From NCBI RefSeq assembly GCF_003991155.1, contig NZ_CP031293.1: a stretch of DNA of 64,000 bases; one strand, 5' to 3'. The stretch comes from Escherichia coli (GTDB taxonomy: Bacteria; Pseudomonadota; Gammaproteobacteria; Enterobacterales; Enterobacteriaceae). Shown here one piece after another: positions 46,290 to 54,049 of the stretch (positions are counted from its first letter, which is position 1; each line of letters starts with the position of its first letter). Both the position numbers and the translations under genes were made by a program. The notes under the pieces are model-generated. The model was not told the origin of the DNA. It worked only from the letters and a program-made list of their open reading frames with translations, and did not search any database.

Positions 46290-47243
46290 ATGCGGGCGAA
46301 ACTTCTGGGAATAGTCCTGACAACCCCTATTGCGATCAGCTCTTTTGCTTCTACCGAGACTATATCGTTTACTCCTGACAACATAAATGCGGGCATTAGT
46401 CTTGGAACTCTGAGCGGAAAAACAAAAGAGCGCGTTTATCTAGCTGAAGAAGGAGGCCGAAAAGTCAGTCAACTCGACTGGAAATTCAATAACGCTGCAA
46501 TTATTAAAGGTGCAATTAATTGGGATTTGATGCCCCAGATATCTATTGGGGCTGCGGGCTGGACTACTCTCGGCAGCCGAGGTGGCAATATGGTCGATCA
46601 GGACTGGATGGATTCCAGTAACCCCGGAACCTGGACAGATGAAAGTAGGCACCCTGATACACAACTCAATTATGCCAACGAATTTGATCTGAATATCAAA
46701 GGCTGGCTCCTCAACGAACCCAATTACCGCCTGGGACTCATGGCCGGATATCAGGAAAGCCGTTATAGCTTTACAGCCAGAGGTGGTTCCTATATCTACA
46801 GTTCTGAGGAGGGATTCAGAGATGATATCGGCTCCTTCCCGAATGGAGAAAGAGCAATCGGCTACAAACAACGTTTTAAAATGCCCTACATTGGCTTGAC
46901 TGGAAGTTATCGTTATGAAGATTTTGAGCTAGGTGGCACATTTAAATACAGCGGCTGGGTGGAAGCATCTGATAACGATGAGCACTATGACCCAGGAAAA
47001 AGAATCACTTATCGCAGTAAAGTCAAAGACCAAAATTACTATTCTGTTGCAGTCAATGCAGGTTATTACGTAACACCTAACGCAAAAGTTTATGTTGAAG
47101 GCGCATGGAATCGGGTTACGAATAAAAAAGGTAATACTTCACTTTATGATCACAATGATAACACTTCAGACTACAGCAAAAATGGTGCAGGCATAGAAAA
47201 CTATAACTTCATCACTACTGCTGGTCTTAAGTACACCTTTTAA
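46290..47243 (+). CDS. ompT: Outer membrane protease OmpT (omptin)
   Basis: 317-aa ORF recognised as OmpT; AT-rich upstream region. Confidence 0.93.
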   Translation: MRAKLLGIVLTTPIAISSFASTETISFTPDNINAGISLGTLSGKTKERVYLAEEGGRKVSQLDWKFNNAAIIKGAINWDLMPQISIGAAGWTTLGSRGGNMVDQDWMDSSNPGTWTDESRHPDTQLNYANEFDLNIKGWLLNEPNYRLGLMAGYQESRYSFTARGGSYIYSSEEGFRDDIGSFPNGERAIGYKQRFKMPYIGLTGSYRYEDFELGGTFKYSGWVEASDNDEHYDPGKRITYRSKVKDQNYYSVAVNAGYYVTPNAKVYVEGAWNRVTNKKGNTSLYDHNDNTSDYSKNGAGIENYNFITTAGLKYTF

Positions 47244-47263
47244 CGAAGTTAACCAGATTTTCT

Positions 47264-47290
47264 CCCCGGTGGTATTGTATAACCCCGGGG
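47264..47290 (+). terminator. Hairpin terminator after ompT
   Basis: ccccgg / ccgggg stem followed by a T-rich tract. Confidence 0.55.
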
Positions 47291-47429
47291 AATTTGTTTA
47301 CAGTTACAAGTAGACAATATCCACTAATTTTGTAAGCATTTAACCTATGTCATAACGTGTAATCTCTTACCGCAACACAAGACCTCAATATATTCAAATC
47401 TTATCTTTATTCCGATATTCAGAGACACA

Positions 47430-48914
47430 ATGCGAAAAATAATTACTCATTTCAAAGTTGTTTTAACGTTACTTCTACCAGTAACCGTATCTGCCCAGCA
47501 GATACAGTGGCAATCCTGTATGGCCAGTCAATTCAACCACTGGTTTGGTGAGGAAAAACCGTCTCCTGACTTACTATGTGGTTATTTGTCTGTTCCATTA
47601 AAATATACAGACACAGGCGGAGATGCTTCTTATGAAAAAAAATCACAAGTCAAACTAGCGTTGACAAAATTGCCGGCAAAAAGCAAGCATAAAGGAAGTA
47701 TCCTGATAATAAGTGGTGGTCCCGGGTTACCAGGCATAAATCCTTATATTAACTTTGACTGGCCAGTCACAAATCTTCGTGAGTCATGGGATATTATTGG
47801 ATTTGATCCTCGAGGCGTCGGACAGTCCACTCCGACAATAAACTGCCGGCAATCAGATACAGAGACTCAGGAAAACATAACCGAAAAGCAACAAGTATTA
47901 AATAAAATTAATGCCTGTATCCATAATACCGGAGCCGAAGTCATTCGCCATATCGGCTCTAACGAGGCTGTATACGATATTGATCGTATTAGGCAAGCCT
48001 TGGGGGATAAACAACTGACAGCCGTGGCGTATTCGTATGGAACTCAAATTGCAGCCTTATATGCAGAACGTTTTCCCTACAACGTAAGATCTATCGTTCT
48101 TGATGGAGTCGTCGATATCGATGACCTGGAGGACAACTTCACATGGCAACTCAAACAGGCACAGAGTTATCAGGAAACGTTTGATCGCTTTGCATCCTGG
48201 TGTGCGCGTACAAAAAGTTGCCCGCTTTCTTCAGACAGAGATAAGGCAATAACTCAGTTCCATGAGCTATTATCAAAATTACATCACAAACCTTTATTAG
48301 ACAGTAAGGGAGAAAATATATCTTCAGATGAACTCATATCATTAACAACAGACCTTCTGCTATGGCGTTCATCATGGCCAACCCTTGCAACTGCCATACG
48401 CCAGTTCTCTCAGGGGATTGTCAGTAATGAAATTGAAACTGCGCTCAGTGCTCCGATAGCCTCAGAAGAGTCAAGCGATGCTTCGGGGGTAATCCTCTGT
48501 GTAGATCAGGGGGATGAGCAATTAACACCAGAAGAGCGAAAATCCCGAAAAGACGCTCTTGCGAATGCCTTCCCGGCTATTAACTTTGACAATGGACGTT
48601 CCGATTCACCTGATTTTTGTGAATTATGGCCAATACATAGCGACCTGAACAAAACTCGCCTGAAAAATACTGTTCTGCCCTCTGGTTTACTGTTTGTAGC
48701 ACACAAATACGACCCAACAACGCCCTGGATTAATGCCCGTAAGATGGCAGAGAAATTTTCCAGCCCGTTACTAACAATAAATGGTGATGGGCATACATTA
48801 GCTCTCACCGGAGTTAATTTATGTGTAGATAAAGCAGTTGTACATCACCTGATCACTCCACAAAAAATAGAAAATATATACTGCCCAGGAAATTCTGAAG
48901 CAGAAATACAATAA
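47430..48914 (+). CDS. Putative secreted alpha/beta-hydrolase, S33 / TAP-like peptidase family
   Basis: 494-aa ORF with signal peptide (MRKIITHFKVVLTLLLPVTVSA), nucleophile-elbow-like YSYGT and a TAP-type C-terminal region (KYDPTTPW); occupies the K-12 appY position. Confidence 0.7.
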   Translation: MRKIITHFKVVLTLLLPVTVSAQQIQWQSCMASQFNHWFGEEKPSPDLLCGYLSVPLKYTDTGGDASYEKKSQVKLALTKLPAKSKHKGSILIISGGPGLPGINPYINFDWPVTNLRESWDIIGFDPRGVGQSTPTINCRQSDTETQENITEKQQVLNKINACIHNTGAEVIRHIGSNEAVYDIDRIRQALGDKQLTAVAYSYGTQIAALYAERFPYNVRSIVLDGVVDIDDLEDNFTWQLKQAQSYQETFDRFASWCARTKSCPLSSDRDKAITQFHELLSKLHHKPLLDSKGENISSDELISLTTDLLLWRSSWPTLATAIRQFSQGIVSNEIETALSAPIASEESSDASGVILCVDQGDEQLTPEERKSRKDALANAFPAINFDNGRSDSPDFCELWPIHSDLNKTRLKNTVLPSGLLFVAHKYDPTTPWINARKMAEKFSSPLLTINGDGHTLALTGVNLCVDKAVVHHLITPQKIENIYCPGNSEAEIQ

Positions 48915-48935
48915 TTTCAAAATATTCCGCTATTT

Positions 48936-48969
48936 GCTCCCAATGCAAAACATATATTGCATTGGGAGC
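48936..48969 (+). terminator. Rho-independent terminator after the hydrolase gene
   Basis: 13-bp perfect stem gctcccaatgcaa / ttgcattgggagc followed by a T-rich run. Confidence 0.65.
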
Positions 48970-49177
48970 ATATTCATATTTTTGTTATTCTTGTATGAAA
49001 TCGTCTCATGTACACGGTCCTTTTTTCGCCGAAAACTGATATTACTTTAATCAAAAGTTGACGTGCCAGATTCGAAGTAAATTTATAAAATATCAAATCA
49101 ATATACATTTTGCACCTTCGAGATAGTAATTGCTGTTACTGTAACATGAGTTACAAACAGCTTCATACCCAGAGCTA

Positions 49178-49396
49178 CTGATGTATCAACACGATTCAAC
49201 AATACCCGATATTTATTCCATGCCTCCAGCAACGATCTTTCTTCCTCCGTTGCGATTTCCCAGCATCCTGCAGTGGCGCAATATACTCACTGAATTCCTG
49301 GATGTAGAACTGTGTGGTGACGGTCTTCCAGCCATTCGGCTCCTGCTGTATCGAAGCATACCAGGCTATTTCAATATCGCTATGCTGCGGCAGCAT
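49178..49396 (-). pseudogene. Tail fibre assembly gene remnant (tfaX-like), frameshifted
   Basis: EYIAPLQDA matches the lambda Tfa C-terminal region as recalled; the rest of the Tfa C-terminus ([27 protein letters not shown]) is in another frame. Confidence 0.6.
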
Positions 49397-49452
49397 TTAA
49401 CCCCTTGTAATTCATCGCCATAATTGATTTAATTCACAAATAAAACTATAAC

Positions 49453-50121
49453 ATGGTGAAATTAATGAAAAAAAACACAGATGATGGGGCTAAAATTTAC
49501 ACACCACTTACCCTAAAGCTTTATGACTGGTGGGTTTTGGGAGTATCAAATCGGCTTGCATGGGGATGTCCTACAAAGGAACACCTTCTTCCACACTTTC
49601 TGGAACATTTAGGTAACAACCATCTGGATATTGGTGTTGGAACTGGGTTTTACCTTACTCACGTACCTGAGAGCAGTCTGATATCTTTAATGGATTTGAA
49701 CGAAGCTAGCCTGAACGCGGCATCTACAAGGGCTGGGGAATCAAAAATTAAACATAAAATTAGCCATGATGTTTTTGAACCTTATCCCGCGGCGTTACAT
49801 GGTCAATTTGATTCCATTTCCATGTTTTACCTTCTTCACTGCCTGCCTGGAAATATATCTACAAAAAGCTGTGTAATACGCAATGCGGCGCAGGCCTTAA
49901 CTGACGATGGAACTCTATACGGAGCCACAATTCTTGGCGATGGAGTTGTGCACAATAGCTTCGGTCAAAAACTGATGCGCATTTACAATCAGAAAGGCAT
50001 CTTTTCAAACACAAAAGATTCCGAAGAAGGCTTAACACATATACTCTCAGAGCATTTCGAGAATGTTAAAACCAAGGTTCAAGGTACTGTAGTAATGTTT
50101 TCCGCTTCAGGGAAAAAATAG
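49453..50121 (+). CDS. Class I SAM-dependent methyltransferase (ybcY-like prophage cargo), apparently intact
   Basis: 222-aa ORF with SAM motif I (LDIGVGTGF); sits between tfa remnants as ybcY does in K-12 DLP12. Confidence 0.75.
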   Translation: MVKLMKKNTDDGAKIYTPLTLKLYDWWVLGVSNRLAWGCPTKEHLLPHFLEHLGNNHLDIGVGTGFYLTHVPESSLISLMDLNEASLNAASTRAGESKIKHKISHDVFEPYPAALHGQFDSISMFYLLHCLPGNISTKSCVIRNAAQALTDDGTLYGATILGDGVVHNSFGQKLMRIYNQKGIFSNTKDSEEGLTHILSEHFENVKTKVQGTVVMFSASGKK

Positions 50122-50175
50122 CATCCAACCGCAGCACGTTCTTGCTTAAGACGTGCTGCGGCATAATCCCAATGA

Positions 50176-50300
50176 TTACTCCCTGACAGGGTTCGTAGGC
50201 CACTCAATATCAGGTGCAGTTGATGTATCAACACGGTTCAGCAACACCCGATACTTCTTCCAGGCTTCCAGCAACGAGGTTTCTTCCTCCGTTGCATATA
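50176..50300 (-). pseudogene. Tail fibre assembly gene 3' remnant (tfaD-like)
   Basis: Translates to [33 protein letters not shown] (Tfa C-terminus) with stops immediately upstream in frame. Confidence 0.6.
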
Positions 50301-50313
50301 CAGCTCACTTTTT

Positions 50314-50607
50314 TCACCCACGATTAACCAACAGCCAGACCAGCAGACACGCCACCACCGGCACAGCAAAATCCATCAGACTTGCTACATCCCACGCGCG
50401 CGGATCAAAACCGCCCCACCACGGCATATTCATTCGCTTGCCATGCCCGAACATTTCAATCCAGCGATATTCTGCCTGGGTGTGTTCACGCGCAATGAAG
50501 AACGTACAACCGGCTATCGCCCCGTAAACCCAGTTTCCGGTAAAAAGACCAATCAGTACCTGCGCAGCCACAGCACAAAGCGCATGAAGAAAAGGTGTTA
50601 TATCCAT
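50314..50607 (-). CDS. Hypothetical small membrane protein (97 aa), prophage tail-fibre region
   Basis: Track ORF with two or three hydrophobic helices, tightly packed after the 234-aa gene; no family recognised. Confidence 0.5.
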   Translation of the reverse strand: MDITPFLHALCAVAAQVLIGLFTGNWVYGAIAGCTFFIAREHTQAEYRWIEMFGHGKRMNMPWWGGFDPRAWDVASLMDFAVPVVACLLVWLLVNRG

Positions 50608-50617
50608 TACTCCTCCT

Positions 50618-51322
50618 TTATCTAATATCGCTTCGGGAAGTTAATAACAACTTTAATTCTGACTCAAGTTCATCAACTCTTTCAGTCAGTTTCTGGATAT
50701 GGTGAATCAGTGGAACAACCAGACGTTCGTACATTACACCTTCGGCAACAAGGCCATTGCTGGAAATAGCTTCAGGAGCATCATCTTCGTTAGCTGGTCG
50801 CCAGTGTACAAACTGAGGAGCAATTTCTCCTACTTCCTCGGCAATCAATCCGTAGAATCCCCAGTCACGCCTGTCATTTTCGCATTGCGACCTGTACCAC
50901 ACAGGGCGCATCCTGAAAATGAGATCGGCGTGCTCTGAATCTATTGTCTCTACTGAATGTTTATAGCGGATAGACGATGTTGACCGCAGCACAGACGAAA
51001 TTGCAGGGTCAGGATTAAGATAAAGGTTTGCCGCCGCTGTAGTCGTGGCCAAATTCCATAAATAAAACGCTTCACGACCTGTCAGTGGATAAAAATCTCC
51101 GCCATAACGACCACTTTCCAGATCGTTCACTTCCACTTTGTTTTTCAGCTTATTATCAACTTCAGTTTTTGTGTATCTGGAGCTGATATCCTGCTTTGCA
51201 CTGGTCATCTCAGTCTGAAGCGTTGATACTTTTCTGCTAATTGATGAAATATCTTCCTTAGCTTTACTGACATCTCCCTTTAGCTTGGTGATATCTCCTG
51301 GAATTACTGTCGATGTAGCCAT
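50618..51322 (-). CDS. Hypothetical fibre-like protein with a C-terminal S74-type intramolecular chaperone-like domain
   Basis: 234-aa ORF; motif SSIRYK then MRPVWYRS and GLIAEEVGEIAPQFV resembles the self-cleaving chaperone domain of phage fibres and spikes. Confidence 0.55.
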   Translation of the reverse strand: MATSTVIPGDITKLKGDVSKAKEDISSISRKVSTLQTEMTSAKQDISSRYTKTEVDNKLKNKVEVNDLESGRYGGDFYPLTGREAFYLWNLATTTAAANLYLNPDPAISSVLRSTSSIRYKHSVETIDSEHADLIFRMRPVWYRSQCENDRRDWGFYGLIAEEVGEIAPQFVHWRPANEDDAPEAISSNGLVAEGVMYERLVVPLIHHIQKLTERVDELESELKLLLTSRSDIR

Positions 51323-51331
51323 TTTTCTGCC

Positions 51332-51613
51332 TCACATCCAGCCACGAAGTTGATGCTCAACAACAACCGCGTATTTATCGAATATTGACGATTTTTTTGC
51401 ATCATTAATGATGCGCACGTTTACAAAATATCCATCTTCCTTAACACATACCGGTTCGCCATCTTCAGTCAGCTCTCCGGTTTCTTTGTACACGTTACCT
51501 ATCACGTCAATAAGAATATCATCCTGCATCGACTCGTCATCATAATAACCAGCACTCTCCATAAAGGTCGAAAAGTCGGCCCTGTCGGCAAATTTGAGTG
51601 TTAAATCTTTCAT
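51332..51613 (-). CDS. Hypothetical small acidic protein (93 aa), coupled to stf
   Basis: Start codon overlaps the stf stop at 51613; Asp/Glu-rich; no family recognised. Confidence 0.5.
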   Translation of the reverse strand: MKDLTLKFADRADFSTFMESAGYYDDESMQDDILIDVIGNVYKETGELTEDGEPVCVKEDGYFVNVRIINDAKKSSIFDKYAVVVEHQLRGWM

Positions 51614-53985
51614 TAGATTGACTCCCCCACCTGAGCATCAGTCAATGCCTTGTGCCATATTCTGAAATTCCTGACATGACCAAATAAATGACGTAACCCG
51701 GCTGTAGTCTGGCCTCCAATACGGATAATTGCGGTGTTCTGAATATAGGACCATGTGGTTTTTGTTTCGCTGGATATACGCCCGTTACTTACTGAGCACG
51801 TAGACTGATCTGACTTTACACGCATCCCCATAACCATTTTTTCAAGCAATGCGTTTTCGTTTACCCGTCTGTTAGCTCCTCCAATATCGCAATAAGGAAA
51901 TCCGTCGTAATCTGTTGAATGACCGAAGCCAAGAATAATAGCCGCTCCGGTTTGATGACCGCCGGTATCAAAAACACGCGGTGCTGCATTTGGCGTTTTA
52001 TACCAGTTCTTATGTACCTCACAAAGAACCGTAAAAGGAAGATTATAAAGGTTATTCTTGATTGGGACTGTCACCATATCGCTTGCGCGGGTCGCTGCCG
52101 TCGTTTCTGATATAATAAAAGATGATGCGCAAGGGCCATTTTCAACCTGAGGGGTGGACAGGAAAATATAATCTCCCGATTCAACGACACCACCTTCTTT
52201 TGGTGCGTATTGTATTGCCGAGGTTATGCAGGACTCGTCAATTGCCTGAATCGTTGCCTCTGCAAAAATCCAGCCCGTAACCTCATCCTTGTTAACTCGA
52301 GCAGTGAGCCTGTCGGCAGCTACACCGGTGATTTCAACCGATAAAGACCGCGTATTAACAATGGCATATCCAAGATTAGATGAAGCGCTGCCATCGAAGG
52401 CTTCAAACCTGATCCTTAACCGGAGTTCCAAATCCGTTTTAAATCTGCACGATGTCGTCACACACTTATTATCGCCTGATACATCGACAGCCCCGGTTAC
52501 TGTAACTGACGCCATGTTAACAGGAGAGGTTTTCCCAATCAGAGAATCGTTACAGACAAATTTTCCATAAGTAAAACCAAAACTATCCGTCCCGGTTTCG
52601 GGCACATCCATATTTACCGACTTGCCCCAACTGGCAGGGGTTTCCGAATTGAGCATGTAGTTCGTTCTCTGACCCTCAATAAGCAGGCCATCACGTTCAA
52701 ATCGTGGCTCGTCAATGGCAGCCTCTGTCAGCACACCAGATTTATTAATATAGGTTGCTTTCGATGCGCGTTTAAACTTTACAACCTTATCGCCAGGCAT
52801 CGTTATTTCATCATCACCAATAACAATCTTTTTATATGATGGCGAAAACCCCGTAATCATATCCAGTGAATCGTTAAACGGTATCCACACATCAGGCAGT
52901 GGCTGTAAGACATATTTATACGGCTCTGCTGCCTGACTTGCATACTCTCTGGCTGCGTCTTCACTTGCTTTTGCAGCGGTCTGGCTTGCAGCGGATGCTT
53001 TCGCCGAGTTCGCCGCTGCAGTCTCGCTTGTCTTTGCATTGGTTTCACTGGTTTTTGCTGCTTTTTGACTGTTGGCTGATGCAGTGGCAGAAGCAGCCGC
53101 CGCACTTGCAGAACCAGCTGCGGCACTCTCGCTTTGGGCTGCTGCATCCTGACTGTTTTTCGCCGCAGTTTCGCTGGCTTTAGCATTCGTTTCGCTGGTC
53201 TTCGCTGCCGTCTGGCTGGACTTTGCGTTGGTTTCGCTCGTCTTCGCTGCTTTCTGACTGTTAGCCGCAGCAGTTGCTGATCCAGCTGCTGAAGTCGCAG
53301 AACCGGCTGCTGCGCTCTCGCTTTCAGCTGCTGCAGCCTGGCTGTTTTTCGCCGCAGTTTCACTGGCTTTAGCATTCGTTTCGCTGGTCTTCGCTGCCGT
53401 CTGGCTTGACTTTGCGTTGGTTTCGCTCGTCTTTGCTGCTGTCTCGCTATTTTTCGCGTTGGTTTCTGATTTTTTGGCTGCTGTCGCGGAATTTGCCGAT
53501 GCAGTCTGTGAGGTCGCTGCCGCCTGTGCGCTGTTAGCTGCATTCGTTTCTGAGGTTTTCGCCGCGTTCTTCGATGATGCCGCTGCAGTTTCGGATTTCT
53601 TTGCCGCCGCTGCGCTCTGAGAGGCGGCTTCGGCGTTGCGTGCCACTTCTTCCACCATTGCCTCAAAACGACGCAATGCCTCCGGCATGACATCATCTTC
53701 CGTCATGGCACCGAGAAAATCATTCAGCGTACCTGGTCTGGAGCCTTCATAGACGGTAATGGTCCCAGCATGTGAAGGCGGAAAACCTTCAACCAGCAGG
53801 GTGACGCTGTACTGGCCATACTCAACATCCATGCTGTAACGTCCGGCTTCATCCGGATTTTCAGAAGCCACCGTGTTCACCAGTACCGTGGTGCTGTTAC
53901 GCTTTGCCTTCAGTTGAATAGTGCAGTTCTGTATTGGTTTTCCCGCACCATCTTTCAGCACACCTGAGATTTTTACTGCTGCCAT
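51613..53985 (-). CDS. stf: Side tail fibre protein Stf (lambda-like N-terminus, repeat region, distinct distal domain)
   Basis: N-terminus MAAVKISGVLKDGAGKPIQNCTIQLKAKRNSTTV matches lambda Stf as recalled; Ala/Ser/Thr-rich AAKTSETNAK repeats in the middle. Confidence 0.85.
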   Translation of the reverse strand: MAAVKISGVLKDGAGKPIQNCTIQLKAKRNSTTVLVNTVASENPDEAGRYSMDVEYGQYSVTLLVEGFPPSHAGTITVYEGSRPGTLNDFLGAMTEDDVMPEALRRFEAMVEEVARNAEAASQSAAAAKKSETAAASSKNAAKTSETNAANSAQAAATSQTASANSATAAKKSETNAKNSETAAKTSETNAKSSQTAAKTSETNAKASETAAKNSQAAAAESESAAAGSATSAAGSATAAANSQKAAKTSETNAKSSQTAAKTSETNAKASETAAKNSQDAAAQSESAAAGSASAAAASATASANSQKAAKTSETNAKTSETAAANSAKASAASQTAAKASEDAAREYASQAAEPYKYVLQPLPDVWIPFNDSLDMITGFSPSYKKIVIGDDEITMPGDKVVKFKRASKATYINKSGVLTEAAIDEPRFERDGLLIEGQRTNYMLNSETPASWGKSVNMDVPETGTDSFGFTYGKFVCNDSLIGKTSPVNMASVTVTGAVDVSGDNKCVTTSCRFKTDLELRLRIRFEAFDGSASSNLGYAIVNTRSLSVEITGVAADRLTARVNKDEVTGWIFAEATIQAIDESCITSAIQYAPKEGGVVESGDYIFLSTPQVENGPCASSFIISETTAATRASDMVTVPIKNNLYNLPFTVLCEVHKNWYKTPNAAPRVFDTGGHQTGAAIILGFGHSTDYDGFPYCDIGGANRRVNENALLEKMVMGMRVKSDQSTCSVSNGRISSETKTTWSYIQNTAIIRIGGQTTAGLRHLFGHVRNFRIWHKALTDAQVGESI

Positions 53986-54049
53986 ATCCACTCCACAAAA
54001 AAGCCCGCCTGAACCGGCGGGCTGTCATAACACTGTGTTACCTGGCTAA

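Follow-up and report, generated by a model that had tools for sequence, protein, structure and literature searches.

The DNA analyzed here, called the window throughout, is a stretch of 64,000 nucleotides from an Escherichia coli contig (NZ_CP031293.1, assembly GCF_003991155.1). The part considered below, from ompT to the gene of a tail-fiber-domain protein, is what commonly stands at the end of a lambda-like prophage, and its arrangement is already known and annotated in K-12 and RefSeq. It contains the following features.

46290 to 47243, plus strand: ompT, coding for an omptin protease and lying outermost among the b-region cargo genes (open reading frame; annotated in a 100%-identical strain, in K-12 and, next to int, in 2G7b and ev243).
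47430 to 48914, plus strand: alpha/beta hydrolase (TAP-like) cargo gene, occupying the place of appY in K-12 (open reading frame, annotation).
48935 to 48970, plus strand: terminator-like hairpin with a T tail, 3' of the hydrolase gene (14-pair stem, 7 GC pairs, T-rich tail).
49098 to 49396, minus strand: tfaX pseudogene, a chimeric ORF (frames, alignment to K-12).
49179 to 49253, minus strand: direct repeat copy A, encoding the region of the C-terminal Tfa helices (repeat search, core count, recount).
49397 to 49452, plus strand: promoter-like region of ybcY, with TTAACC-16-CATAAT (49397-49424) and TTGATT-17-TATAAC (49424-49452) (consensus scan).
49465 to 50121, plus strand: ybcY, intact, predicted class I SAM-dependent methyltransferase of 218 aa (ORF, Pfam, PHROG, structure model).
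50129 to 50161, no strand assigned: GC-rich hairpin where the ends of ybcY and tfa converge, terminator-like, tfa-distal and common to lambda (folding, lambda alignment).
50176 to 50295, minus strand: 5'-truncated tfa remnant, the last 39 codons with no start (PGAP in an identical strain: 'tail fiber assembly protein, incomplete, missing N-terminus').
50221 to 50295, minus strand: direct repeat copy B, within the tfa remnant (repeat search).
50314 to 50607, minus strand: hydrophobic ORF of 97 aa, phrog_1443, function unknown, standing in place of the tfa body (ORF list, PHROG).
50618 to 51322, minus strand: tail-fiber-domain protein of 234 aa, like the C-terminal ends of long tail fibers (PHROG, annotation).

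The repeat search returned a single direct-repeat family, copies A and B, of 75 nt with 88% identity and a spacing of 1042. A preliminary description had given roughly 80 bp and 85% identity; the direct repeats are real, and we correct only their size and identity. On recount the copies are identical at 66 of 75 positions, with nine mismatches and a longest perfect run of 16 nt, and the 64-kb window has exactly two occurrences of their degenerate 32-nt core, where shuffles give an expectation of 0. As had been proposed, both encode the Tfa C-terminus on the minus strand: the translations read ATEEE[R/T]SLLEAW[N/K]..., in agreement with lambda, K-12 TfaD and PhiR26_1 Tfa, and align to residues ~153-177 of lambda Tfa (translation of lambda orf-194). 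Pairwise alignment thus relates the repeats both to each other and to lambda tfa, the lambda DNA being 88% identical over 50127-50296 and 81% over 49179-49303. The left copy still encodes the Tfa C-terminus, but the reading frame that contains it is broken in the window by a 7-bp deletion.

Tfa proteins combine a variable fiber-binding N-domain with a conserved helical C-terminal domain (PMC9608196). Copy B, startless and 39 codons long, lacks the N-terminal domain and is not a full-length Tfa. The homology of the full-length tfa genes of K-12 and PhiR26_1 to the window ends at 50295, and the 97-aa ORF stands between the stub and the tail-fiber genes, as it also adjoins a tfa scar in phages 2G7b and ev243. 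The neighboring 234-aa protein matches positions 1147-1383 of the 1385 of phrog_3299 (E 9.5e-138) and several further 'tail fiber protein' PHROGs. Unannotated tfa 3' remnants of 57-108 nt are present in many lambdoid phages. Copy B is the scar of joining a different tail-fiber module. The hairpin downstream of the stub, unique in the window, folds at -23.9 kcal/mol (z -5.2 on the plus strand, -4.0 on the minus strand), and a T run follows it on the minus strand, with no T tract on the ybcY strand. It is homologous to lambda 22437-22608.

Copy A lies in tfaX, a chimeric ORF by its composition and not a standard Tfa. It is made of ybcY-upstream antisense DNA (49304-49396), an internal tfa fragment (49179-49303; 132 nt) whose best full-length tfa match has 85-87% identity, and an unrelated tail (49098-49178). 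K-12 and the window have different C-terminal tails, the Tfa homology running ~20 nt longer in K-12 ('PDIEW'). The 7-bp deletion, between 49260 and 49261, frameshifts tfaX in the window and in phage 2G7b, and the allele is found on 800 contigs; the K-12 lesion differs, being a TGG to TAG stop without the deletion. Intact TfaX is 101 aa long, occurs in ev243, PhiR26_1 and Turner, and matches Pfam Caudo_TAP (E 1.1e-17) over model positions 75-121 of 131 only. Copy A is not directly downstream of a cognate fiber gene; it is frameshifted and lies past a convergent gene.

It could be proposed that tfaX is a real gene for a short, selected Tfa-like protein, which might supply the trimerizing C-domain to the new fiber module or interfere with the fiber assembly of rival lambdoid phages; the duplication would then have a function and not be a scar. 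The exact 101-aa sequence is found on at least 1,000 contigs as well as in the three phages named above, the conserved C-terminal Tfa helices are retained, and an RNA polymerase binding site in K-12 faces tfaX (PMC3946193). We nevertheless consider this unlikely. The frame is lost by the 7-bp deletion in the window and in a viable phage, 2G7b, and by a different break in K-12; tfaX is split in phage Ayreon, which has the N-terminal segment and the ybcY flank without the Tfa-like part, and is missing from strains with an ompT-ybcY arrangement, which lack window 47400-49369 and show TTCAA(T)ATC microhomology at the joint. Moreover, the N-terminal third is antisense to DNA upstream of ybcY, the C-terminal tail varies between K-12 and the window, the fiber-binding N-domain is absent, and a hairpin and a convergent gene separate tfaX from the late operon. 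At ~99% DNA identity, an intact tfaX weighs little either way. The ompT-ybcY arrangement itself may be a deletion derivative, to which the microhomology points, or the ancestral state.

Two further candidates in this interval were rejected. PGAP annotates a 'DinI family protein' fragment (plus strand, ~49298-49378) that could not be reproduced: it gives no NCBIfam match at E<=10, and tblastn of its 37-aa translation against 50,697 phage records found nothing beyond ybcY-linked copies. A LexA box candidate near 49138-49160 (CTGT...ACAG) has the wrong spacing.

Between the two tfa relics, the ybcY frame is open over 49453-50121 on the plus strand. An in-frame upstream ATG at 49453 would yield 222 aa, and the true start is likely ATG 49465, because homologues are mostly 218 aa long and the PHROG profile alignment begins at residue 5. 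Apart from two substitutions (K to R and F to S in K-12), the gene differs from the K-12 frame by the K-12 lesion, a 2-bp loss of 'GA' at the ATG (TTAATGAAAAAAAAC to TTAATAAAAAAAC) that destroys the start codon. The expectation that the methyltransferase gene is intact, in contrast to K-12 ybcY, was therefore borne out, and alignment located the K-12 lesion. Its intactness is nothing exceptional, the intact form being the norm. ybcY is present in 3,837 of 5,426 complete E. coli genomes. Comparison with a divergent allele gives a dN/dS of ~0.1, a value that rests on 7-9 differences only.

Genomic SELEX with RpoD predicts the second of the promoter-like sites as the K-12 ybcY promoter, and both RpoD and H-NS bind the ybcY/tfaX spacer (PMC3946193); the position of TTGATT-17-TATAAC given above was taken directly from the window sequence. 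The promoter and terminator calls are consensus matches whose frequency is at chance level for the region. The ybcY stop codon lies 7 nt ahead of the hairpin at 50129-50161. The GC content of ybcY is 0.412, deviating from that of stf and the J-like gene (0.49-0.57) and of the window (0.527).

Morons are extra genes that sit between conserved phage genes and bring a promoter and a terminator of their own, as exemplified in HK97 and HK022. ybcY looks like a moron-like cargo gene that is putatively expressed: it is a single extra gene of low GC content, with promoter-like sites and a terminator-like hairpin, opposed to the late operon. It is absent from relatives, as the lambda backbone homology ends at 50127, lambda has no ybcY and Ayreon lacks the ybcY body. 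It is unlike the classical morons in that the hairpin belongs jointly to the tfa flank and was not imported by the gene.

The YbcY protein matches phrog_2132 over its full length and the Pfam families Methyltransf_12 (6.3e-9), _23, _25, _11 and _31. SAM motif I reads LDIGVGTG at residues 54-61, with D55, G57, G59 and G61 invariant in 32 homologues. Its AlphaFold model (pLDDT 90.3, pTM 0.87) gave 1,355 Foldseek matches in the PDB at E<=1e-3, led by JHAMT, PE N-methyltransferase and PfPMT (TM 0.55-0.68); profile, SAM motif and alternating beta/alpha fold are all those of a class I SAM-methyltransferase. The top 50 PDB neighbors are small-molecule, lipid or polyketide methyltransferases, and, by sequence, the closest solved proteins are UbiG and juvenile-hormone acid methyltransferase. 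The homologues in Salmonella, Enterobacter and Yersinia are solitary chromosomal genes with unrelated neighbors, so the neighborhood offers no hint of a pathway. Two other assignments were discarded: NCBIfam naming as CpaM or RquA (17 bits against cut-offs of 175-180, far sub-threshold), and a defense role based on a PADLOC mad2 match (E 0.003, 14 bits). PADLOC gave no meaningful match to TfaX or the 97-aa ORF. Eleven papers contain the name ybcY; where it denotes the E. coli gene, it appears in lists only, with no function given.

These data suggest that YbcY is a conserved predicted methyltransferase of the small-molecule type, its activity being deduced from profile and model. Orphan DNA methyltransferases are frequent in phages and YbcY does have a SAM-binding Rossmann fold, so that a DNA methyltransferase serving anti-restriction or epigenetic marking might be considered; we regard this as extremely unlikely. 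YbcY has no (D/N/S)PP(Y/F/W) or PC(Q/K) catalytic motif and no match to a DNA-methylase Pfam family; no such enzyme is found among its top 50 structures or nearest sequences, and the solitary homologues in other genera are housekeeping-like. Since YbcY resembles a small-molecule methyltransferase, the methylome comparison that had been suggested as a test of the gene is misdirected.

The same arrangement was found in K-12 and in viable phages. K-12 DLP12 (tfaD-ybcY'-tfaX'-appY-ompT-envY-ybcH-nfrA) has the same chromosomal locus, gene order and orientation, is 97% identical to window 49174-50295, and its tfaX was made by the same ybcY-upstream/tfa joint. It differs in that appY replaces the hydrolase gene, leaving a gap in K-12 homology between 47293 and 49174, and in that tfaD retains most of the tfa body, compared with 120 nt in the window. 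The hydrolase shows weak prolyl-aminopeptidase family matches and a PADLOC match to PDLC01094 'TAP-like protein' (E 6.8e-56). Phages 2G7b, ev243 (Nesevirus) and PhiR26_1 are 98.8-99.7% identical to window 46001-50600 and have the order int-ompT-hydrolase-tfaX-ybcY-(tfa or tfa scar)-tail fiber. In 2G7b both the tfaX 7-bp deletion and the joint of the 97-aa ORF to the tfa scar are as in the window. PhiR26_1 has the complete arrangement of classical stf, full-length tfa, ybcY, intact tfaX, hydrolase and ompT. In ev243 and PhiR26_1 tfaX is intact, unlike in the window, and the tail-fiber tip genes differ among the phages and the window. In lambda, the Tfa C-terminus and hairpin (22437-22608) correspond to window 50127-50296 at 88% identity and the b region begins straight after, convergently. 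Because this homology includes the hairpin, ybcY ends exactly at the start of the lambda-like backbone. Lambda differs in having one full tfa followed by ea47, ea31 and ea59, without ybcY, tfaX, hydrolase or ompT.

The tail-fiber and tfa genes are mosaic among lambda, P2, Mu, P1 and defective prophages. In this classical mosaicism, as at the present locus, the conserved Tfa C-terminal segment is the homology shared between unlike modules; the products differ, since in place of alternative working tfa genes there are here a stub of 39 codons and a chimeric ORF, both relics without function. The last 120 nt of tfa match 18,611 places in 5,312 genomes, with a median of 4 copies per genome, and by this multiplicity the tfa 3' end acts as a homology patch for lambdoid swaps. 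Consistent with the above, and with the earlier proposal that tfa 3' ends join differing modules, at least five distinct joints lie in or beside them.

50295/50296: joint to the 97-aa ORF module.
50161/50162: joint to an invertase region, in phage Turner.
49303/49304: joint to ybcY-upstream DNA.
About 49174-49178: divergence point of the window hydrolase cassette and the K-12 appY cassette.
In K-12: joint at which tfaX continues to 'PDIEW' ahead of appY.

An invertible segment does not account for the repeats: they stand in direct orientation, and no invertase is encoded in the window. Phage Turner alone has an invertase, beside the same cassette.

The ends of the ybcY unit fall at 49304-49370 and 50122-50161 and not at the repeats: on the left, the upstream DNA stops at 49310 in Ayreon or at 49370 in the ompT-ybcY strains, in both cases without the left tfa, and on the right the end is the hairpin, before the tfa stop. 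This bears on a further reading, in which homologous or site-specific exchange between the two tfa 3' repeats mobilizes a ybcY cassette, cargo being gained and lost time after time exactly there. The repeats are direct and flank ybcY, the tfa 3' end offers a homology patch in many copies, and Red recombination accepts short, diverged homology (PMC3945230). Yet the predicted copy A/copy B deletion product, searched for with a chimeric flank query at >=80% coverage, was found in 0 of 5,426 genomes, the copies share at most 16 nt of perfect match, and there is no recombinase ORF next to the cassette in the window. Variants that lack one of the copies, or ybcY, have their joints in other places, at 49310 (Ayreon), 49370 (ompT-ybcY strains) and 50161 (Turner). 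We consider active sites quite improbable, and the locus does not have the makeup of a repeat-bounded mobile cassette. Nor does the evidence favor a special or recent capture of cargo: viable phages and about half of the complete E. coli genomes have inherited the block of tfa remnant, ybcY, tfaX, hydrolase and ompT as one piece, at >99% identity, and K-12 has the same bracket, annotated as tfaD and tfaX. The full bracket was seen in about 33 of 60 rows, evenly spaced through 4,899 matching records, which corresponds to about half of the complete E. coli genomes.

We propose, with a probability of roughly 0.8, that the locus is the boundary between the tail-fiber genes and the b region of a lambda-like prophage at DLP12/ompT, with the repeats as tfa relics, ybcY as a moron and the tfa 3' end as a homology patch. 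The late operon on the minus strand runs through the tail-fiber module and the last 120 nt of tfa to the hairpin, downstream of which lie three oppositely oriented cargo genes, ybcY, the alpha/beta hydrolase gene and ompT. Copy B would have arisen when a tail-fiber module without a full tfa was joined by a crossover within tfa, leaving the scar. Copy A would be an older, diverged 132-nt tfa fragment, and one illegitimate joint to ybcY-upstream DNA would have created tfaX. The tfa 3' end would thus serve as a patch flanked by exchangeable tail-fiber modules and, on the opposite side, by exchangeable b-region cargo. The order of these events is read from a handful of variants and not from a phylogeny. 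In experiments, stf-tfa homology let lambda and the prophages Rac and Qin exchange DNA at ~2e-6 (PMC3945230).

The arrangement is among the commonest prophage end structures of E. coli and as such has little discovery value; the locus is a clean natural case of a Tfa C-terminal homology patch between swappable fiber modules and stacked b-region cargo. Intact YbcY, which lambdoid prophages bring to ~70% of E. coli and which is under purifying selection, might have a host metabolite or an envelope lipid as its methyl acceptor, and separately or additionally an intact TfaX might act as a dominant-negative Tfa C-domain that disrupts fiber assembly in superinfecting lambdoid phages. This reading is speculative and improbable; with tfaX frameshifted in the window, only its YbcY part could apply here. 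If true, methylation by YbcY could give lysogens altered phage adsorption, stress tolerance or colonization. The gene is widespread, conserved and prophage-borne, and its neglect in research may be explained by the dead copy in the K-12 model strain.

Annotations routinely give the 120-nt stub and 'tfaX' the name 'tail fiber assembly protein'. As the stub is a scar and tfaX a chimeric ORF, predictions of host range from prophage tail modules should treat neither as a functional chaperone.

A repeat search of the 64-kb window returned a single strong direct repeat, 49179-49253 (copy A) and 50221-50295 (copy B), of 75 nt with 88% identity and a spacing of 1042. The two copies differ by 9 mismatches with a longest perfect run of 16 nt, and a degenerate 32-nt core occurs exactly twice in the window, where chance predicts no occurrence. 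The minus-strand translation of both copies matches the conserved Tfa C-terminal part of lambda, K-12 TfaD and PhiR26_1 Tfa. These results bear out the preliminary description, which had reported two direct repeats encoding the Tfa C-terminus on the minus strand; its intact plus-strand methyltransferase, unlike K-12 ybcY, was likewise confirmed. The layout of the region is as follows.

Features of the region (window coordinates, strand, description)
46290-47243, plus, ompT, the leftmost feature listed
47430-48914, plus, alpha/beta hydrolase, 494 aa
48935-48970, terminator-like hairpin belonging to the hydrolase
49098-49396, minus, broken reading frames
49397-49424, promoter-like site TTAACC-16-CATAAT upstream of ybcY
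49424-49452, promoter-like site TTGATT-17-TATAAC upstream of ybcY
49453-50121, plus, ORF containing ybcY
50129-50161, GC-rich hairpin
ending at 50176, minus, short Tfa-like frame
50314-50607, minus, hydrophobic protein gene, 97 aa
50618-51322, minus, tail-fibre-domain protein gene, 234 aa
beyond the 234-aa gene, minus, 93-aa protein gene
51613-53991, minus, open side tail fibre ORF, 792 aa

The 1.8-kb region is 100% identical in many E. coli chromosomes, and strain 2016C-3878 is annotated as nfrA-ybcH-envY-ompT-hydrolase-(tfa pseudogene)-methyltransferase-(tfa pseudogene)-hypothetical-tail fibre...Lom-J. At the same locus, the cryptic prophage DLP12 of K-12 MG1655 carries tfaD, ybcY (pseudogene), tfaX, appY, ompT, envY, ybcH and nfrA in the same order, so a methyltransferase between two tfa ends had already been annotated; the bracketed methyltransferase is an ordinary, known feature. 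Alignment and translation placed the K-12 ybcY lesion at a 2-bp loss (TTAATGAAAAAAAAC to TTAATAAAAAAAC) by which the 218-aa form loses its ATG and the upstream ATG is put out of frame. The remainder of the K-12 frame is open, with only two residue differences (K to R and F to S). In K-12-like records an annotation pipeline names a feature overlapping the ybcY/tfaD end 'nucleocapsid protein', which looks like a naming artefact. The window hydrolase stands in place of K-12 appY and travels with ompT in the viable phages 2G7b, ev243 and PhiR26_1; a match to PADLOC PDLC01094 ('C3a206, TAP-like protein'; E 6.8e-56) spans the whole protein, and there are weak hits to prolyl-aminopeptidase families.

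We took 49465 as the ybcY start because YbcY homologues are mostly 218 aa, the PHROG profile alignment begins at residue 5, and GGTGA is read in the sequence 4 nt upstream of this ATG. At the other end, lambda 22437-22608 aligns with window 50127-50296, spanning both the Tfa C-terminus and the hairpin; this assigns the hairpin to the DNA flanking tfa, with the ybcY stop at 50121 directly beside it. Folding gives a stable structure (-23.9 kcal/mol, z -5.2), and a T run comes after it on the tfa strand. A second copy of the hairpin (compared with window 50122-50162; 86% over 42 nt) is found in the lambda b region at 24161-24202 (5162-5203 of the extracted lambda locus, L006), between ea47 and ea31, so the same terminator-like hairpin recurs at b-region gene boundaries and might serve as another short homology patch. 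TTGATT-17-TATAAC is the K-12 ybcY promoter predicted by RpoD genomic SELEX, and H-NS binding has been reported in the ybcY upstream spacer (PMC3946193). At 0.41, ybcY is lower in GC than the window (0.53). As far as sequence features go, the predicted promoters, hairpin and GC content would fit a moron.

Pfam gives YbcY generic class I methyltransferase matches, and its SAM motif LDIGVGTG is invariant. The AlphaFold model is confident (pLDDT 90), with structural neighbours among juvenile-hormone acid, phosphatidylethanolamine, phosphoethanolamine, polyketide and natural-product methyltransferases; the nearest solved sequences are UbiG and JHAMT (E about 1e-3). A DNA-methylase motif and Pfam family were looked for in YbcY and neither was found. 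The best reading of the model and its neighbours is a predicted small-molecule or lipid methyltransferase. Homologues at 56-68% identity are solitary chromosomal genes with unrelated neighbours in Salmonella, Enterobacter and Yersinia, and the window allele differs from the divergent allele of strains with ompT joined straight to the ybcY promoter region (ompT-ybcY strains) by 5-7 synonymous and 2 non-synonymous changes (dN/dS about 0.1, from small numbers). Acquisition of ybcY from an enterobacterial chromosome and its retention as prophage cargo is the best reading of its origin.

Copy A lies within tfaX, which when intact (ev243, PhiR26_1, Turner) encodes 101 aa: residues 1-36 are unique, 37-77 correspond to Tfa residues ~144-184, and a 24-residue unrelated tail follows. 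The Pfam match is limited to positions 75-121 of the 131 in the Caudo_TAP model. In the window, tfaX has lost 7 bp between 49260 and 49261 and is frameshifted; 2G7b has the same allele, and 800 contigs have its 66-aa product on record. K-12 tfaX carries a different lesion, a TGG to TAG stop, and remains Tfa-like as far as 'PDIEW', after which its sequence gives way to the appY region. Two natural variants assign the N-terminal third of tfaX to the ybcY flank rather than to tfa. In phage Ayreon the tfa scar, the hairpin and the final 36 bp of ybcY are joined directly to window 49426-49310, beyond which lies unrelated DNA without the Tfa-like part. In the ompT-ybcY strains, a CFT073-type context (PMC6854850), window 47399 is fused to 49370 across an imperfect microhomology, TTCAA(T)ATC, with neither the hydrolase nor the tfaX body. 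Among 50,697 phage records, no full-length tfa exceeds 85-87% identity to the Tfa-like 132 nt, which are therefore an old copy. We concluded that tfaX is a chimeric ORF made by joints and not a bona fide tfa gene; the intact form could conceivably be used for something. Ayreon (locus L018, 3487-3822) is also a natural internal ybcY deletion, with window 50086 joined to 49426 in the promoter region. A 27-codon 'DinI family protein' fragment annotated by RefSeq antisense to tfaX (6399-6479 of L001, the strain matching the window; window ~49298-49378, plus strand) found no support in NCBIfam or phage tblastn and was set aside.

Copy B lies in frame 50176-50295, the final 39 codons of tfa. Its homology to full-length tfa (K-12 tfaD, PhiR26_1) ends at 50295, past which the window, like 2G7b and ev243, runs into the 97-aa ORF (phrog_1443); copy B thus marks, as a scar, the joint between the conserved end of tfa and a different tail-fibre module. 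The 234-aa protein of that module matches long tail fibres at their C-terminal ends (phrog_3299, positions 1147-1383 of 1385). Many other lambdoid phages have similar tfa 3' scars, unannotated and 57-108 nt long, and the tfa 3' 120 nt alone (50176-50295) is found at 18,611 places in 5,312 genomes (median 4 and maximum 10 per genome). The 97-aa ORF occupies the expected site of the tfa body beside the scar, and at least 1,000 contigs carry the identical sequence. Pfam, NCBIfam and PADLOC searches gave it no match, phrog_1443 being the only one; the product may be a tail-fibre-module membrane protein or an exclusion factor.

Distinct mosaic joints occur within or beside tfa 3' sequence: at 50295/6 into the 97-aa ORF module, at 50161/2 into an invertase region (Turner and O157-type prophages), at 49303/4 between the tfa fragment and ybcY-upstream DNA, and at about 49174-49178, where the window has the hydrolase cassette vs the appY cassette of K-12. 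Recombination across diverged stf-tfa sequences brings Rac and Qin prophage DNA into lambda at about 2e-6, chiefly by way of Red-beta (PMC3945230), and the Tfa C-terminal domain is conserved while the remainder is variable (PMC9608196). We infer that one illegitimate event linked a position inside the tfa of one phage with DNA beyond the ybcY of another, which would have placed the b region of that phage (appY or hydrolase, then ompT) in a stack behind ybcY. Subsequent exchanges in the tfa-like 3' end would have traded appY for the hydrolase, and a separate crossover within tfa probably substituted the present fibre module for stf-tfa. On this reading the repeats are by-products of such events and not functional sites. 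The suggestion that recombination at tfa 3' ends captured cargo is supported in part. Mosaic joints do lie there, but the ybcY unit does not end at the repeats, the copies share no perfect run longer than 16 nt, and the predicted copy A/copy B recombinant was absent among 5,426 complete E. coli genomes.

The ybcY gene with its flanks (49397-50175) is present in 3,837 of these 5,426 genomes, with up to 4 copies each, and in 17 phage records (14 with at least 80% query coverage); intact ybcY is the norm. The whole bracket (49179-50295) matched 4,899 records, whose coverage was judged from 60 evenly spaced rows of the ranked list. About 33 of the 60 cover both repeats, which by extrapolation places the whole bracket in approximately one genome in two. 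Another 9 or so (about 15%) end near 50161-50167, without the right-hand tfa directly past the hairpin (Turner/O157 type), and about 4 begin at 49367, without the left copy. Gene order is int-ompT-hydrolase-tfaX-ybcY-(scar)-97-aa ORF-tail fibre-Lom-J in 2G7b and ev243, and J-lom-stf-full tfa-ybcY-intact tfaX-hydrolase-ompT in PhiR26_1; from these maps the block is the b region of a viable lambdoid phage family. In Turner (locus L005, 5766-7511) ~1.7 kb containing small ORFs and a DNA invertase gene (6823-7413) separates the ybcY hairpin from a full-length Rac-type tfa. Strains 2009C-3133 and Rb-3 (L008 5001-5007 and L009) have minimal DLP12-type remnants, nfrA-ybcH-ompT-ybcY-tfa'-int'-tRNA-Arg, in which ybcY is intact; these have the same TTCAA(T)ATC joint of ompT to the ybcY promoter region (window 47399 and 49370), and the hydrolase and tfaX are missing. 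The 792-aa side tail fibre ORF contains long Ala/Ser/Thr-rich repeats (AAKTSETNAK...); RefSeq annotates the corresponding stretch of L001 (8714-11086), a strain whose identity to the window was established for 48900-50700, as three partial or pseudogene features, for which either a sequence difference in this stretch or confusion of the annotation by the repeats may account.
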